A stretch of 24,456 bases of DNA from Longimicrobiales bacterium (GTDB lineage Bacteria; Gemmatimonadota; Gemmatimonadetes; Longimicrobiales; RSA9): NCBI GenBank assembly GCA_035715725.1, contig DASTKT010000043.1:1-24456 (forward strand), read 5' to 3'. The notes under the pieces are model-generated. The model was not told where the DNA came from. It ran no database searches and saw only the letters and a list, made by a program, of their open reading frames with translations. The position numbers were made by a program, and so were the translations under genes. Shown piece after piece: positions 1 through 24,456 of the stretch (its first letter is position 1; each line of letters begins with the position of its first letter).

Positions 1-89
1 CCGGCCGGCCCGGCGCCCCCCGCCCGCCTCAGGCGGATCAGCCGCGAAGGGGTGGGCGGAGGCGCGCGGGTGGGCCGGGACGAGAACGG

Positions 90-135
90 AAATCTTCACC
101 GCAGAGCACGGAGGGCACGGAGGAACACGGAGGAT
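90..135 (+). repeat. TTCACCGCAGAG anchor followed by three tandem CACGGAGG units (107-114, 116-123, 126-133): a member of the TTTTCACCGCAGAG/CRCRGAGG module family
   Basis: tcTTCACCGCAGAGCACGGAGGgCACGGAGGaaCACGGAGGat. Compare the plus strand at 22854-22884: TTTTCACCGCAGAGGCGCAGAGCACACGGAGAACGG. Confidence 0.55.
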
Positions 136-244
136 CACCGGGCACCGGAGACTCGCCGGCGTGACGCACCCTCTCTTGATGTCATTCTCCGGCGTACGCC
201 GGCGCCCGGCGTGGGGCCGGTGCGCTGCGGCCGTACCGCTGTGG

Positions 245-325
245 CCTCTGTGCCTCTCTGGTGTGCTTTTAATGGACGTGAGGCCGCGCGAACGTGAGGC
301 CGGACTCGCACTCCGCGCCGGCGGC
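245..325 (-). repeat. Copy of the GGCCTCACGT direct-repeat block (paired 12-mers at 275-286 and 292-303 on the plus strand as GACGTGAGGCC), followed on the minus strand by a degenerate CACACCAGAGAGGCACAGAGG tail. It lies 3' of the VOC gene.
   Basis: See the alignment under 20137-20230. Confidence 0.6.
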
Positions 326-351
326 ACTGCGCCCGGTCTCGACGTCCCGCG

Positions 352-1239
352 TCAGACCAGCCGCACCGCCGTCCCCCACGGGTCCTCGGCGCGGAACCCC
401 TCCGCCGTCCGGGCGACGGGGTAGCCCGCAGCCTCCAGGCTCGCGGCCGCCGCCTCGGCGTCCGCGCGCGACGGCAACACCACCTCCCAGTCCAGCAGCC
501 GCGCATCCTCCTCGCCCGCCGCCGGCGCGCCCGCCGCCCACGTGTTCAGCCCCAGGTGATGGTGGTAGCCGCCCGCCGACAGGAACAGCGCGCCCGGATA
601 GCTCCACACCACCGCGTCCAGCCCGAGCGCGGCGTGGTAGAAGGCCGCGGCCGCCTCCAGCTCGCCGACGTGCAGGTGCACGTGGCCCATCGTCGTGCCG
701 GGCGGCATCCCCGTCCAGCGCTCGCCGCGCCCCGCGGCCAGCACGCCCTCGGCGTCCAGCGGCCGCGTGTCCATGGCGAGCTGCCCGCCCTGCCAGCGCC
801 ACGCGCTCCGCGGCCGATCCGCGTACACCTCGATCCCCAGCCCGTCCGGGTCCCGCAGGTACAGCGCCTCGCTCACGAGGTGATCCGACATCCCGGCGTA
901 CACGCCCGCCCGCTGCAGGTGCGCCAGGAACCGGCCGAGCGCCGCCCGGTCCGGGAGCAGGATCGCGAAATGGTACAGCCCGAGCCGGCCGCGCTGCGGC
1001 ACCGGCCGCGCACCCCGCCGCTCCCGCAGCTCGACCAGCGCCTCTCCGGACTCCGAGCCGAGCACGACCCGGCCCTCATCCCGCTCCAGCTCCCGCAGCC
1101 CCAGCACCTCCCCGTAGTACCGGCGCGACCGCTCCAGCTCCGCGATCTGCAGCCGCACCCGCCCCAGCCGGACCTCCGCCGGCAGCCGGTACACCGGCGG
1201 CGCGATGCCGCGCTCCCCGATCGCCTCGTTCCCCCCCAT
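352..1239 (-). CDS. Two-domain VOC (glyoxalase/bleomycin-resistance/extradiol dioxygenase) family protein, catechol-2,3-dioxygenase-like (CatE-like). Start moved to the internal ATG at 1239 (MGGNEAIG...).
   Basis: Translation shows two tandem VOC modules with His-containing motifs (GHVHLHV, YHHHLGLN). ATG 1239 is preceded by GAGGAGG 6 nt upstream on the minus strand. It lies 37 bp downstream of the DoxX gene on the same strand. Confidence 0.7.
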   Translation of the reverse strand: MGGNEAIGERGIAPPVYRLPAEVRLGRVRLQIAELERSRRYYGEVLGLRELERDEGRVVLGSESGEALVELRERRGARPVPQRGRLGLYHFAILLPDRAALGRFLAHLQRAGVYAGMSDHLVSEALYLRDPDGLGIEVYADRPRSAWRWQGGQLAMDTRPLDAEGVLAAGRGERWTGMPPGTTMGHVHLHVGELEAAAAFYHAALGLDAVVWSYPGALFLSAGGYHHHLGLNTWAAGAPAAGEEDARLLDWEVVLPSRADAEAAAASLEAAGYPVARTAEGFRAEDPWGTAVRLV

Positions 1240-1276
1240 CGCTCGCCTCCTCGCCCGCCGCCGCGGCGGCGCCGGC

Positions 1277-1717
1277 TCACACGGTGACGTGGTCCCGACC
1301 GACGCGCGCATCCAGCGAATACGCCCCCGCCCCCGCCAGCGTCAGCGCGAGCAGGCTCGCCAGCAGCACCAGCGGGAACTCGACGCCCATCCCGCCGAAG
1401 AAGCCGTACTTCATGTGCACCAGCAGGATCGCTCCCACCATGTCGATCGCCAGCAACGGCGCCACCAGCCGCGTCAGCGCCCCCAGGATCAGCGCGAGCC
1501 CGCCGAGTGACTCCAGCGCCGTGACCAGCACGCTCGTCACCTCCGGCATCGGCGCCCCGACCTTCGTGAAGAACGCCGCCGTGCCGCCCAGCCCGAACTC
1601 GAACAGCTTCTGTGCGCCGTGCGCCACGAAGATCCCGCCGATCACGACGCGCAGCAGCAGCAGCGCGGCATCGGTCCGCCGGTCGTCCGCCGAAGTCCCA
1701 AGCTCCACCGGAACCAT
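1277..1717 (-). CDS. DoxX family membrane protein (CatD/MhqP-like)
   Basis: The C-terminal 146 aa of ORF 1277..2425 (MVPVELG...LLLLRVVIGGIFVAHGAQKLFEFG...) is a typical multi-TM DoxX. The ATG at 1717 is an internal Met. The upstream part of that ORF is low-complexity G/A/R junk that overlaps the MarR gene in another frame. Confidence 0.8.
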   Translation of the reverse strand: MVPVELGTSADDRRTDAALLLLRVVIGGIFVAHGAQKLFEFGLGGTAAFFTKVGAPMPEVTSVLVTALESLGGLALILGALTRLVAPLLAIDMVGAILLVHMKYGFFGGMGVEFPLVLLASLLALTLAGAGAYSLDARVGRDHVTV

Positions 1718-7360: not shown

Positions 7361-7490
7361 TCCTCTGGCTCTTGCTCGCCCTCTTGCTCTTGCTTCTCGA
7401 GACTCGGCGCTCCCGGCTCGACAGGTTTGAGCCGTGAGGTTCGAGGATGCGAGGGGCAAGAGCAAGAGCATGAGCAAGAGCATGAGACGC
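7361..7490. repeat. Long imperfect inverted repeat (arms about 7368-7399 and 7449-7480) built from tandem CTCTTGCTC units. It is preceded by a 24-bp GC palindrome at 7323-7346.
   Basis: The left arm gctcttgctcgccctcttgctcttgcttctcg matches the reverse complement of cgaggggcaagagcaagagcatgagcaagagc at 27 of 32 positions. It lies 3' of the MerR gene in a 613-bp non-coding interval. Confidence 0.6.
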
Positions 7491-8476: not shown

Positions 8477-8521
8477 GGAATGCGCCCGGTGGGATGCCTC
8501 CCACCGGGCGCTTCACATTCC
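8477..8521. repeat. REP-like palindromic hairpin, copy 1: gaatGCGCCCGGTGGGAtgccTCCCACCGGGCGCttcacattc
   Basis: Stem is perfect over 13 bp. The same core recurs at 20045-20080 and in degenerate form at 19326-19360. Confidence 0.7.
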
Positions 8522-8619
8522 CCGGAAACCATCTACTGCCCGGTACTCCTCCGCGGCTCCGCGCTCTCCGCGTGAGATGCCGTTCGCCGGCCCGGCCGGG
8601 GCCCATCCGGTGCCCGGAG

Positions 8620-8659
8620 CCCCGTGGCTCTCCGTGTGCCCCGTGGCTCCGTGTGACGC
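8620..8659 (-). repeat. Tandem direct repeat of about 19 bp (minus-strand reading CACACGGAG(A)GCCACGGGG, two copies) in the 3' region of the M20 peptidase gene
   Basis: On the plus strand, ccccgtggctctccgtgtg is followed by ccccgtggctccgtgtgac. The 15-mer GTCACACGGAGCCAC is identical to 20199-20213. Confidence 0.6.
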
Positions 8660-19916: not shown

Positions 19917-20044
19917 CCGCCCGGTTCGGCAGCGGCGGGTCACCCTCGGGGACCCGCTCCGGCCCCGCGGCGGCCGAACGTTCCGGGGAGCTCCCGCGGA
20001 GGCGGGAGAATGCCCGGGCGTTCGAGAGTTTCCGGTGAACGTGA

Positions 20045-20080
20045 ACGGCGCCCGGTGGGTTGCTTCCCACCGGGCGCCGT
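20045..20080. repeat. REP-like hairpin, copy 2: 15-bp perfect stem ACGGCGCCCGGTGGG / CCCACCGGGCGCCGT with loop TTGCTT. It lies between convergent genes and is a candidate bidirectional terminator.
   Basis: Seen directly. The core GCGCCCGGTGGG..CCCACCGGGCGC is identical to 8482-8511. Confidence 0.7.
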
Positions 20081-20136
20081 CGATTCTCCGAGGAGCGTCG
20101 ATCTCGTCTTTTCGGTGTTTCGAGCCCGCGCCCAGC

Positions 20137-20230
20137 GCCGCCGGCGCGGAGCCCGAGCCCGGCCTCACGTCCGCGGGCGGCCTCACGTCCGAAAGTGTCA
20201 CACGGAGCCACCGAGGGCACGGAAGAGCCG
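20137..20230 (+). repeat. Roughly 55-bp conserved block GCCGCCGGCGCGGAG..CGAG..CC followed by two direct repeats GGCCTCACGTCCG (20161-20173, 20180-20192) and a CACACGGAGCCAC tail. It is homologous to 245-325 in the opposite orientation.
   Basis: Minus strand of 245-325 reads gccgccggcgcggagtgcgagtccGGCCTCACGTTCGCGCGGCCTCACGTCC. Plus strand of 20137-20192 reads gccgccggcgcggagcccgagcccGGCCTCACGTCCGCGGGCGGCCTCACGTCC. Confidence 0.65.
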
Positions 20231-20336
20231 CGGAGGGCGGCCGCACCCTTCCGGCAGCACCCCGAGCCGCCGGCGTACGCCGGGAATGACATCGTAGGAA
20301 GGTGCGCTCCCCGGCGGTTCTCCAGTGCCCGGTGAC

Positions 20337-20417
20337 CCTCTGAGCCCTCTGCGCCTCTGCGGTGAAAAAGTCCGTTCCCGACCGCAGCCGCGCCCGCGGA
20401 CCGGGCCGAACGCGCCC
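20337..20417 (-). repeat. Copy A of the TTTTCACCGCAGAGG-CGCAGAGGG-CTCAGAGGG module (minus-strand reading). It abuts the stop codon (20418-20420) of the ring-cleaving dioxygenase gene.
   Basis: The plus strand 20347-20369 reads ctctgcgcctctgcggtgaaaaa. The flanking about 50 bp also align with copies at 23205-23283 and 22803-22883. Confidence 0.7.
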
Positions 20418-22802: not shown

Positions 22803-23283
22803 CCGCGGCGGCGACGGGGCCCGGCGCAGCGGCGTCGGCCTGCGAACGACCCTTTTCACCGCAGAGGCGCAGAGCACACGGAGAACGGCGACGGAGCCGG
22901 GCGGCGCGGCTTCGTCGCATCCGAAAGATCCTCTTTGAGTTGGACCGGTGGTAAGCGGGGTACCGGTACGACTTCAGTGTTCGAGTTGGACCGGTGGACC
23001 GAGGTTCATCGGTCCACCTCCTCTTGGGAGGTGGACCGGCGTGATGCGGGTCACTGGTGCCGTGGCCGGACCGGAGATTTGCGGCTCACCGGTCCACTTC
23101 ATCATCCCTGCTTCCACGTCGGAGCCGGCGTAGCCCGGATCCAGACCCCAACAGGTGGTGCGTTCGCCCGCGAAGGCTGCTCCCCGCCGGCTCAGGCCGT
23201 TCTTCGTGTACTCTGCGCCTCTGCGGTGAAAACCGTCGTTCGCAGGCCGACGCCGCTGCGCGGAGGCCCGTCGCCGCTCGCCT
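22803..23283. repeat. Roughly 480-bp foldback element. The left arm (22803-22925) and right arm (23160-23283) are imperfect inverted repeats. The outer 80 bp are about 90% identical and inner identity decays. Each arm carries the TTTTCACCGCAGAGGCGCAGAG module. The central 235 bp is rich in ACCGGT-core palindromes.
   Basis: rc(22803-22883) reads ...gtgtgctctgcgcctctgcggtgaaaagggtcgttcgcaggccgacgccgctgcgccgggccccgtcgccgc. 23205-23281 reads gtgtactctgcgcctctgcggtgaaaaccgtcgttcgcaggccgacgccgctgcgcggaggcccgtcgccgc. The right arm ends exactly at the AKR stop codon (23282-23284). Confidence 0.7.
23005..23040. repeat. Perfect hairpin in the foldback centre (GGTCCACCTCC tcttg GGAGGTGGACC), flanked by further GGACCGGTGG / GTACCGGTAC palindromes (22940-23095)
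   Basis: Seen directly. GAGTTGGACCGGTGG occurs twice as a direct repeat (22936-22950, 22983-22997). Confidence 0.6.
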
Positions 23284-24184
23284 ACCGCGCGGCGTCCAGC
23301 AGCCGCATGTCCTCCTCGTCCAGCTCGATGCTCGCCGCCGCGAGGTTCTCCTCGAGGTGCGAGACGCGCGAGGTGCCGGGGATCGGCAGCATGACGGGCG
23401 AGCGGGCCAGGAGCCAGGCGAGCGCGATCTGCATGGCCGTGGCGTCGTGGCGGCGGGCGACGCGCTCGAGGCGCTCGCGGGCGGCGCGCTCCTCGGCCTC
23501 CTCGCCGAGAGAGCCGGCGCCGAGCGGGAACCAGGGGATGAACGCGATGCCGGCGTTCTCGGCGTACTCGAGGACCGCCTCCCACTCGCGGTCGAGGATG
23601 TTGTAGCGGTTCTGGACGGAGGCGATCGGCACGACGCGGCGGGCGCGCTCGATGTCGTCGACGCCGACCTCGGAGAGGCCGACGTGGCGGACGAGCCCCT
23701 CCCGGACGAACTCGGCGAGCGCGCCGAACTGCTCGTCGGCCGGGACCTCGCGGTCGATGCGGTGGAGCTGCCAGAGGTCGATGCGCTCGAGGCGGAGTCG
23801 GCGCAGGCTTCCCTCCAGGGCGCGGCGCAGGTACTCGGGCCGGCCGTTCTCGACCCAGCGGCCCGGGCCGGGGCGCTCGAAGCCGCCCTTCGTCGCGATG
23901 ACGAGGCCGTCGGGGTACGGCCGCAGCGCCTCCGCGATGAGGTCCTCGGAGACGTACGGGCCGTAGGAATCCGCGGTATCGATGAAGTCGACGCCGAGCT
24001 CGACGGCGCGGCGGAGCACGCGCTTCGCCTCGGCGATGTCGGCGGGCGGCCCGAAGATGCCGGGCCCGGTGATGCGCATGGCGCCGTAGCCCATGCGGTT
24101 GACGACGAGGTCGCCGCCGAGGGTGATCGTGCCGGCCTGCGCGGCGGGCGGTGCGCCGGGTGTCCGGATGCTGCTGGTGCTCAT
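23282..24184 (-). CDS. Aldo/keto reductase family oxidoreductase; start ATG 24184 preferred (AAGGA, 7-nt spacer). An alternative ATG at 24352 would add an (EA)n low-complexity extension encoded by the hexamer repeat.
   Basis: AKR N-terminal pattern (TITLGGDLVVNRMGYGAMRITG), the internal LRRLRLERIDLWQLHRID motif, and the C-terminal IPGTSRVSHLEENL. Confidence 0.8.
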   Translation of the reverse strand: MSTSSIRTPGAPPAAQAGTITLGGDLVVNRMGYGAMRITGPGIFGPPADIAEAKRVLRRAVELGVDFIDTADSYGPYVSEDLIAEALRPYPDGLVIATKGGFERPGPGRWVENGRPEYLRRALEGSLRRLRLERIDLWQLHRIDREVPADEQFGALAEFVREGLVRHVGLSEVGVDDIERARRVVPIASVQNRYNILDREWEAVLEYAENAGIAFIPWFPLGAGSLGEEAEERAARERLERVARRHDATAMQIALAWLLARSPVMLPIPGTSRVSHLEENLAAASIELDEEDMRLLDAAR

Positions 24185-24298
24185 CGGTCGATCCTTCTCG
24201 TCGGGAACAGCCGCCTCGCGGGCGGGGTCGCGGCCCGCGGCGCCACGGGTCGATGTCCAGCGGTTGCAGGATGGGTTCCACCCGGCCCGCGCCCCACC

Positions 24299-24352
24299 CG
24301 CCTCCGCCTCCGCCTCCGCGCCCGCCTCCGCGCCCGCCTCCGCCTCCGCCAT
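24299..24352. repeat. Imperfect hexamer microsatellite (CGCCTC/CGCGCC) of about 9 units, 115-170 bp upstream of the AKR start
   Basis: cgcctccgcctccgcctccgcgcccgcctccgcgcccgcctccgcctccgcc. Confidence 0.7.
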
Positions 24353-24456
24353 CCGCGCGACAGCCGTCCCCGCGCATGGTGCAGCTGACCCATGCCGCCC
24401 GGCCGCCCTAGCCGATAGCTTGAGGCACCCCCGAGGCCCGTGTCCGCGCGGCGTCG

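Follow-up and report, generated by a model that had tools for sequence, protein, structure and literature searches.

Foldback repeats with arms of tandem 7-nt cores in a Longimicrobiales contig belong to an arm family found in at least six bacterial phyla and in tailed phages

What is the short anchor, followed each time by tandem units of a few nucleotides, that keeps returning between unrelated genes of a Longimicrobiales contig? The window, by which we mean the whole 24,456-nt stretch of DNA that was analysed, has a GC content of 73%, and the best protein matches of its dioxygenase are in Longimicrobiales metagenome-assembled genomes (MAGs). Look-ups of four proteins of the window for exact database entries gave no match. 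The genes flanking the repeats are ordinary: two VOC dioxygenases, a MerR/TipAS regulator, an M20 peptidase, a polyketide cyclase-like protein, YceI, MarR and an aldo-keto reductase (AKR). No transposase is encoded in the window, and all of the repeat copies in it are intergenic. A preliminary description had listed five copies of the module, all of which are present, within ~3 nt of where it had placed them, and had likened them to dispersed REP/BIME-type elements; this was right in kind, as they belong to a genuine family of the REP/BIME/MITE kind.

The recurrence is clearly beyond chance. From base composition, ~0.002 exact matches to the 12-nt anchor TTCACCGCAGAG are expected in the window, as against the four observed, and every one of the four is followed by tandem CRCRGAG units; when up to two mismatches are allowed there are nine matches, a number reached in none of 100 dinucleotide shuffles. 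A hidden Markov model (HMM) of the arm, trained on 95 arms from other organisms only, with the window arms left out, finds the arms of the window at E = 4e-10, 2e-9, 2.5e-9 and 2.6e-4, and a degenerate arm at E = 0.31.

The modules first noted are single arms of larger elements, here called e1 to e4 (Table 1), and the inverted pairing of the arms, the second arm of e2, the e4 locus and the homology of ~280 nt between e1 and e2 are all additions to the preliminary description. As to the last of these, e1 63-342 aligns with the reverse complement of e2 20120-20398 at 83% identity (MAFFT; BLAST E = 2e-29), and the alignment takes in the left arm, the central palindrome CCGGCGTACGCCGG, the degenerate right arm, the duplicated ACGTGAGGCCG and the GC-rich hairpin. 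Within the arm, three units of CACGGAGG in e1 stand against CGCAGAGG, CGCAGAGGG and CTCAGAGGG in e2, with an 8-nt gap in the alignment. The idea of a minisatellite-like expansion on a conserved anchor is borne out to the extent that unit number and unit sequence vary in this way, but the basic unit is the arm, usually in a convergent inverted pair. The VOC gene 352-1311(-) has its stop 10 nt from the end of e1, and e2 is placed in the gap that separates the cyclase gene (stop 19916) from the convergent dioxygenase gene (stop 20418). The non-repetitive sequence that e1 and e2 have in common is in opposite orientation relative to the adjacent VOC genes, and the pair is thus not the product of a gene-plus-flank duplication.

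e3 occupies the whole spacer from the AKR stop (23282) to the MarR start (22743), its arms enclosing 306 nt of unrelated sequence (22890-23195) for which there is no match in Rfam. Several copies of GGTGGACCG / TGGACCGGTGG, on both strands, are found in this interior together with internal hairpins, and it could be a nested element or a set of operator sites upstream of the MarR gene. e2 and e3 match each other by BLAST at 74% over 66 nt (E = 1e-7), and the outer segment of the right arm of e3 (23235-23281), part of the e3 inverted repeat, is the counterpart of e2 20370-20417; this GC-rich segment between stop and anchor resembles a decayed back-to-back arm. That copies begin exactly at stop codons, as had been claimed for two of them, is true approximately: the e3 repeat extends to 23277, 4 nt from the AKR stop, and the e1/e2 homology to 20398, but the anchors of e2 and of the right arm of e3 each begin 51 nt past a stop codon.

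The fourth element is different in layout. Both arms of e4 are sense to the M20 peptidase gene (stop 8712), with arm A beginning ~54 nt past the stop; the two arms are direct and form no long hairpin (z = -1.1). A perfect small hairpin, GCGCCCGGTGGG-N6-CCCACCGGGCGC, occurs at 8482-8511 and again at 20048-20077, each time 30-45 nt from an e-element, and is probably either a real terminator or a separate REP-like repeat. At 7363-7486, 49 nt behind the MerR/TipAS stop (7535), there is another long hairpin (z = -5.9), whose arms consist of five tandem hexamers (CTCTTG in one arm, GCAAGA in the other); it has the architecture of an e-element, but an unrelated unit and no TTCAC anchor.

Table 1. Repeat elements of the window and their parts (positions counted from the first letter of the window).
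Feature	Position	Strand	Description
e1	63-342	+	~280-nt composite
e1 left arm	95-134	+	TTCACCGCAGAG + CACGGAGG x3
e1 central palindrome	189-202		CCGGCGTACGCCGG
e1 right arm	236-270	-	degenerate
e1 extension	276-342		ACGTGAGGCCG x2 + GC-rich hairpin
e4	8546-8657	-	two degenerate arms in tandem (direct) orientation, GAACGG before each
e4 arm B	8546-8577	-	TCTCAC-GCGGAG-AGCGCGGAG-CCGCGGAGG
e4 arm A	8628-8657	-	GTCAC-ACGGAG...
e2	20120-20398	-	inverted copy of e1; holds the module first noted at 20337-20372
e2 extension	20120-20190
e2 second arm	20197-20237	+	sense arm on plus strand
e2 central palindrome	20270-20283
e2 arm	20336-20369	-	anchor 20355-20366
e2 outer GC-rich segment	20370-20417	-	dioxygenase stop to T-run; GAACGG + reverse-unit-like GTCCGCGG
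e3	22808-23277	.	470-nt foldback
e3 inverted arms (82 nt)	22808-22889 and 23196-23277		91% complementary
e3 left motif arm	22853-22888	+	anchor 22855-22866
e3 right motif arm	23197-23232	-	anchor 23219-23230
Exact anchor (12-mer)	95(+), 20355(-), 22855(+), 23219(-)		TTCACCGCAGAG; 4 exact matches in 24 kb

It had been suggested that the repeat might be lineage-specific. It is not: the arm family is real and widespread, extending over at least six phyla and to tailed phages. The arm, TTCAC followed by three times CGCAGAG with 1-2 purines, occurs in Planctomycetota, Verrucomicrobiota, Acidobacteriota, Pseudomonadota, Cyanobacteriota and Gemmatimonadota. A scan with GAACGNNNNTNTTCACCGCAGAG, taking one genome per species, gave 32 matches, 13 of which run on into tandem NCGCAGAG units that are absent from the pattern; these 13 loci come from Planctomycetota, Verrucomicrobiia, Acidobacteriota (Pyrinomonadaceae, Blastocatellia), Pseudomonadota, a Gemmatimonadetes MAG and a Longimicrobiales MAG, and have inverted partner arms 75-310 nt away. 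Among viral contigs, a 19-nt arm pattern matched 52 IMG/VR stretches, where a regular expression picks out 116 arms, and several of the carrier contigs are true tailed-phage structural modules (tape measure, capsid, Mu F-like and baseplate V-like genes). BLAST of the consensus arm against plasmids found it in the cultured Gemmatirosa kalamazoonensis (15 and 8 places), in Sphingobium, Sphingomonas and Nostoc, and in other cyanobacteria, and the copies on the plasmids of the four named genera were confirmed by direct reading of the sequence. E. coli genomes gave no arm match, cultured phages two weak matches only, and e3 as a BLAST query no match among plasmids.

The HMM consensus of the arm is an A-rich flank followed by TTCACC GCAGAG R CGCAGAG RR CGCAGAG AA, with the third unit 73-87% conserved even though it was in no search pattern. 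In Rfam 15, neither the window nor 13 other loci with elements match anything at E up to 1 save chance miRNA-like hairpins far below the gathering score. Many of the genome matches lie within a few hundred bases of contig ends (L001 and L012, from a Burkholderiaceae MAG; L005, L006 and L019), which suggests that the repeats break short-read assemblies. The centre of ~97-nt elements in phages (L051, L084) reads GTCAT-G-CCGGCG-NN-CGCCGGC, and that of e1 and e2 GTCAT-TC(T)-CCGGCG-TA-CGCCGGC (window 182-203 and 20270-20290); the resemblance of the two may be due to a common descent of whole elements in very distant hosts, or to chance. A metagenome scan for the e1/e2 centre (GTCATTC.CCGGCGTACGCCGG) returned four chance matches in coding DNA, and the e1/e2 composite was not found elsewhere.

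Each arm is TTCAC and then about three 7-nt cores, CGCAGAG or its variants CACGGAG, CACAGAG, CGCGGAG and CGCAAAG, with 1-2 purines between cores. Among 127 distinct arms, a complementary partner within 600 nt faces inward for 73 and outward for five; the paired elements so formed are 58-632 nt long with unrelated interiors, the minimal forms being hairpins of 60-80 nt, while ~50 arms (~40%) are solo and tandem arms also occur. The enrichment behind gene ends that had been proposed as a check was found: 57 of the 127 arms (45%) start 0-20 nt past the stop of a co-directional long ORF, compared with 88 of 1320 random positions (6.7%). Solo arms are sense to the upstream gene in 25 cases and antisense in 5; a Nostoc solo arm between coxII and ctaD is antisense. 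Many solo arms come to an end 5-25 nt ahead of an ATG, where AGAGGA is placed like an SD. The elements of phage late operons take up the stop-to-start spacers exactly, and in Sphingomonas parapaucimobilis an element of 153 nt exactly spans the gap between two annotated convergent stop codons; in this and the other convergent pairs, each gene meets a sense arm first.

Whole elements, with their interiors and arm mismatches, have been copied within a genome, as is seen in one phage with five copies of ~97 nt that have a common interior and identical arm-specific mismatches. Site occupancy, moreover, differs between close relatives. The dioxygenase of GCA_019689775.1 is 90% identical, and the spacer that separates it from the cyclase there measures 96 nt and is without e2, keeping the small hairpin GCGCCCGGTGGG...CCCACCGGGCGC (L034 880-909); in a relative at 94% (L033 2209-2826), a flavodoxin_2/FMN-reductase gene stands between the dioxygenase and the cyclase, where the window (19917-20417) has e2. 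The dioxygenase-cyclase spacer is thus a variable spot, holding e2, the flavodoxin_2/FMN-reductase gene, or neither. The AKR-MarR spacer of GCA_019689775.1 is 785 nt long and has a different foldback at the e3 site, of 503 nt (L090 3400-3902) with 39-nt arms made of ACAGGAT units. The ACAGGAT arm, GACAGGATGAACAGGAT, is found in 40 IMG/VR stretches with the same three-unit architecture, often as hairpins of 60-70 nt, and the ACAGGAT family is a sister of the TTCAC-(CGCAGAG) arms. Plasmid 1 of Gemmatirosa kalamazoonensis (L087 24804-24884 and 25762-25843) has hairpins with arms of tandem CGTGGAG-type units and of GGGACTC x4, which suggests that hairpins built of tandem units are common in Gemmatimonadota genomes generally. 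Within an arm the units become homogenised, and this, with the drift of unit number and sequence, is consistent with slippage.

The reading that we prefer, and hold with about even confidence, is that of a foldback, non-autonomous intergenic repeat, broadly REP/MITE-like, with each arm an array of a conserved 7-nt core that a putative factor would read. The element would spread by copying, in a way that makes no target duplication, and spread would require a trans-acting, sequence-specific factor reading the 7-nt cores, perhaps an enzyme of the transposase type or else a conserved protein of the host; copies would persist behind stop codons because insertions are harmless there, and perhaps because they are useful as 3'-end hairpins. 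The sense bias of the solo arms is not what a purely selfish DNA element predicts.

Of the known mobile repeats, bacterial MITEs and ERIC (Correia/NEMIS, Nezha, Chunjie, ERIC) are similar in having inverted ends, a non-coding interior, a size of 60-500 nt, filled and empty sites and size variants from internal insertion (PMC3184786). Inverted repeats are found here in e3, with its 82-nt arms at 91%, and in 37 pairs elsewhere, and filled and empty sites in the close relative, in which e2 is absent and the e3 site holds another element. In contrast to MITEs, no consistent direct repeat of 2-6 nt was found at any boundary offset in the 37 pairs, and hence no target-site duplication; the arms consist of tandem sub-repeats, and solo arms are common. 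An IS200-like TnpA, searched for in a weak test with an approximate query sequence, had no match in 5286 ORF segments from ~1 Mb of element loci, and in the same ~1 Mb neither a parent IS with these ends nor arms flanking a transposase turned up in searches with patterns too short to span a gene. Nor did any copy come to light in which the arms flank a gene. The only convergent pair of 1.4 kb (L082) encloses phage baseplate genes.

REPs are imperfect palindromes of 20-40 nt with a 5' tetranucleotide of the GTAG/GTGG type, and their cognate RAYT, a Y1 HUH transposase, is typically flanked by repeats. The REP, BIME and REPIN elements of Enterobacteria and Pseudomonas share with the window family that they are short, extragenic and multicopy, form hairpins from inverted pairs, leave no target duplication and lie close behind stops. 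The unit of a REP, however, is a palindrome, while the arm here is a direct tandem array with a TTCAC head and is not palindromic. No RAYT was found in the window. Eukaryotic Foldback (FB) transposons likewise have long inverted arms of short tandem sub-repeats in variable number around a variable middle, but they are eukaryotic, much larger, make target duplications and in some cases carry a transposase. Integron attC sites were rejected, as the ends here are TTCACC ... GGTGAA and not RYYYAAC ... GTTRRRY, and the copies in the window are 2.5-12 kb apart with no cassette array; likenesses to attC, CRISPR repeats, DnaA boxes, boxA and 16S fragments were weak, and protein-binding arrays of the CsrA or TRAP type were set aside because spacing and core do not match the known consensus sites.

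In breadth of distribution, too, the family departs from REPs, which are species-specific, while the present arm is common to several phyla. Small palindromic repeats are normally confined to a species, and this fits their dependence on a cognate transposase. An arm of ~30 nt that is nearly invariant in cultured and uncultured members of at least six phyla and in tailed phages points to a very conserved partner, be it a protein of the host or a mobile enzyme that is promiscuous, or else to extensive horizontal transfer, for which phages are possible carriers; near-identity across phyla would need one or the other. A more ambitious proposal, possible but rather unlikely in our estimate, is that TTCAC-(CGCAGAG-R)3 and sisters such as GACAGGAT-GAACAGGAT form a pan-bacterial and phage class served by one conserved putative factor, which would act on ssDNA or RNA behind stops in a mobilisation or post-termination mechanism that is neither REP/RAYT nor an IS derivative. 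Such a partner, if it is found, could account for an entire class of hairpins with tandem units in environmental genomes, a class that would include the ACAGGAT family and the class 1-3 sites of Geobacter.

The position of the arms also invites a reading at the RNA level, in which the purine-rich sense arm behind the stop, either solo or folded with its partner into a hairpin whose mismatches are periodic, has its effect on the transcript. It could serve in stabilisation or processing of the 3' end or in insulation of convergent or adjacent cistrons, or its repeated SD-like GAGG could hold ribosomes after termination for coupling to the next gene. We think this unlikely, although much of the positional evidence agrees with it: the 45% of arms just past co-directional stops, the sense bias of the solo arms (25 vs 5), the AGAGGA placed like an SD before many an ATG, the exactly filled spacers of the phage late operons, and the order of arms in convergent pairs, with the sense arm first for each gene. 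The spacers between cores are purine on the TTCAC strand in both arms (arm HMM), that is, on the sense strand only, which leaves room for a single-strand role, be it of RNA or of ssDNA. e3 (fold z = -14.8) and e1 form long hairpins. On the other hand, shuffled sequences fold as well as e2 and e4 do, the solo arm of Nostoc is antisense, and there is no Rfam match.

The pairing of the arms likewise speaks for a constraint on DNA and not on a transcript. In 37 pairs, with the direction of transcription inferred, mismatches on the sense strand are of the G.U type in 56 cases and of the A.C type in 65, so that G.U is not favoured. When 29 arm pairs were aligned, 90.3% of the cells of arm and partner paired, compared with 89.4% after partners were shuffled; changes on both sides were seen in 11 pairs as against 7.0 +/- 1.5 in the shuffles, a weak covariation with almost nothing beyond the shared consensus, and the spacer positions were unpaired in about half of the elements. 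The arms follow the consensus individually and not their partner, and the hairpin is thus largely a by-product of two convergent copies of the motif. Nor is the element an intrinsic terminator. The two have in common a GC-rich hairpin just past the stop, sometimes between convergent genes; in a terminator, however, the U-run follows the stem, whereas here a T-run lies 5' of the stem and an A-run 3' of it, on both strands, the stem is conserved across phyla, and solo arms form no hairpin. With its T-run on the wrong side the intrinsic terminator is rejected, and termination at the TTTT of the anchor, which had been put forward for testing, is unlikely.

If each arm fits the consensus by itself, the arms might simply be arrays of binding sites for a DNA-binding protein, whether an IHF/HU-like nucleoid protein or a regulator, and a pair would then be two sites on opposite strands and not a hairpin. 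A proposal of this kind has been made for Geobacter metallireducens (Aklujkar et al. 2009, PMC2700814), where "putative global regulator binding sites" of classes 1-3 are described as sites paired across the two strands with a variable distance between them, each site of 3-5 tandem repeats of 7-9 nt, intergenic and multicopy; they come from one genome, are called unique to it, and binding by IHF/HU was the authors' guess. In the account of the sites given there, class 2 has the consensus TCTCCGTS(Y) x3, which corresponds in reverse complement to the CACGGAGR unit of the window, so that class 2 agrees with the window family in architecture and unit, and the e1 arm, with CACGGAGG/CACGGAGGA x3 and an inverted partner, falls under the class 2 definition; the comparison is with the published description. 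The variable spacing within pairs (58-630 nt) and the occurrence of solo and tandem arms are also as expected of binding sites. Against this, three units with a period of 8-9 bp fit no known IHF/HU site, and the Geobacter proposal (PMC2700814) is itself speculative; a regulon would be unexpected at unrelated genes of six phyla and between phage structural genes, and the copying of whole elements and their position at stop codons would be left unexplained. We regard binding-site arrays as an improbable account of the family.

The same comparison qualifies the view that the repeat is undescribed. Paired three-unit TCTCCGTS(Y) arrays have been catalogued in Geobacter metallireducens since 2009 (PMC2700814), and MacGregor (2015, PMC4679880) reported direct repeats of the heptamer TAACTGA near start codons, with a patchy distribution across phyla and no known mechanism; with the Geobacter sites taken alongside the TAACTGA arrays, the architecture is not new. 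The TAACTGA arrays and the cyanobacterial STRR heptamers resemble the window family as intergenic, tandem 7-nt units that are candidate sites for a factor (PMC4679880), but they are plain direct arrays of another unit sequence, with no non-repetitive anchor, and are almost never inverted. The cross-phylum TTCAC-(CGCAGAG)3 family, for its part, was found neither described nor named in the literature, where searches with its sequence strings returned primers only, or nothing.

Local simple-sequence expansion, in which slippage and the formation of palindromes give rise locally to microsatellites of 7-9 nt, the loci being unrelated by descent, is highly improbable and largely refuted by the shared anchor and the shared interiors: heptamer-class tandem repeats are the commonest long SSRs of bacteria (Mrazek 2007, as cited in PMC4679880), unrelated tandem-unit hairpins do occur in the window (7363-7486) and in Gemmatirosa, and units are homogenised within arms, but slippage accounts for the number of units and not for the family, given a non-repetitive TTCAC anchor with the same core in six phyla, the 280 nt that e1 and e2 share, non-repetitive parts included, and the common interiors of the phage copies.

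There is also a practical side. Tandem-unit elements probably break assemblies and generate spurious small ORFs, and the arm consensus can be used for masking the elements in MAG annotation. One further array is seen close to the end of the contig, where a (CCGCCT) hexamer is repeated 9.7 times at 24298-24356, almost reaching the contig end and lying ahead of the position where the AKR gene probably starts; the AKR protein in the database is 300 aa long, with its start near 24184.
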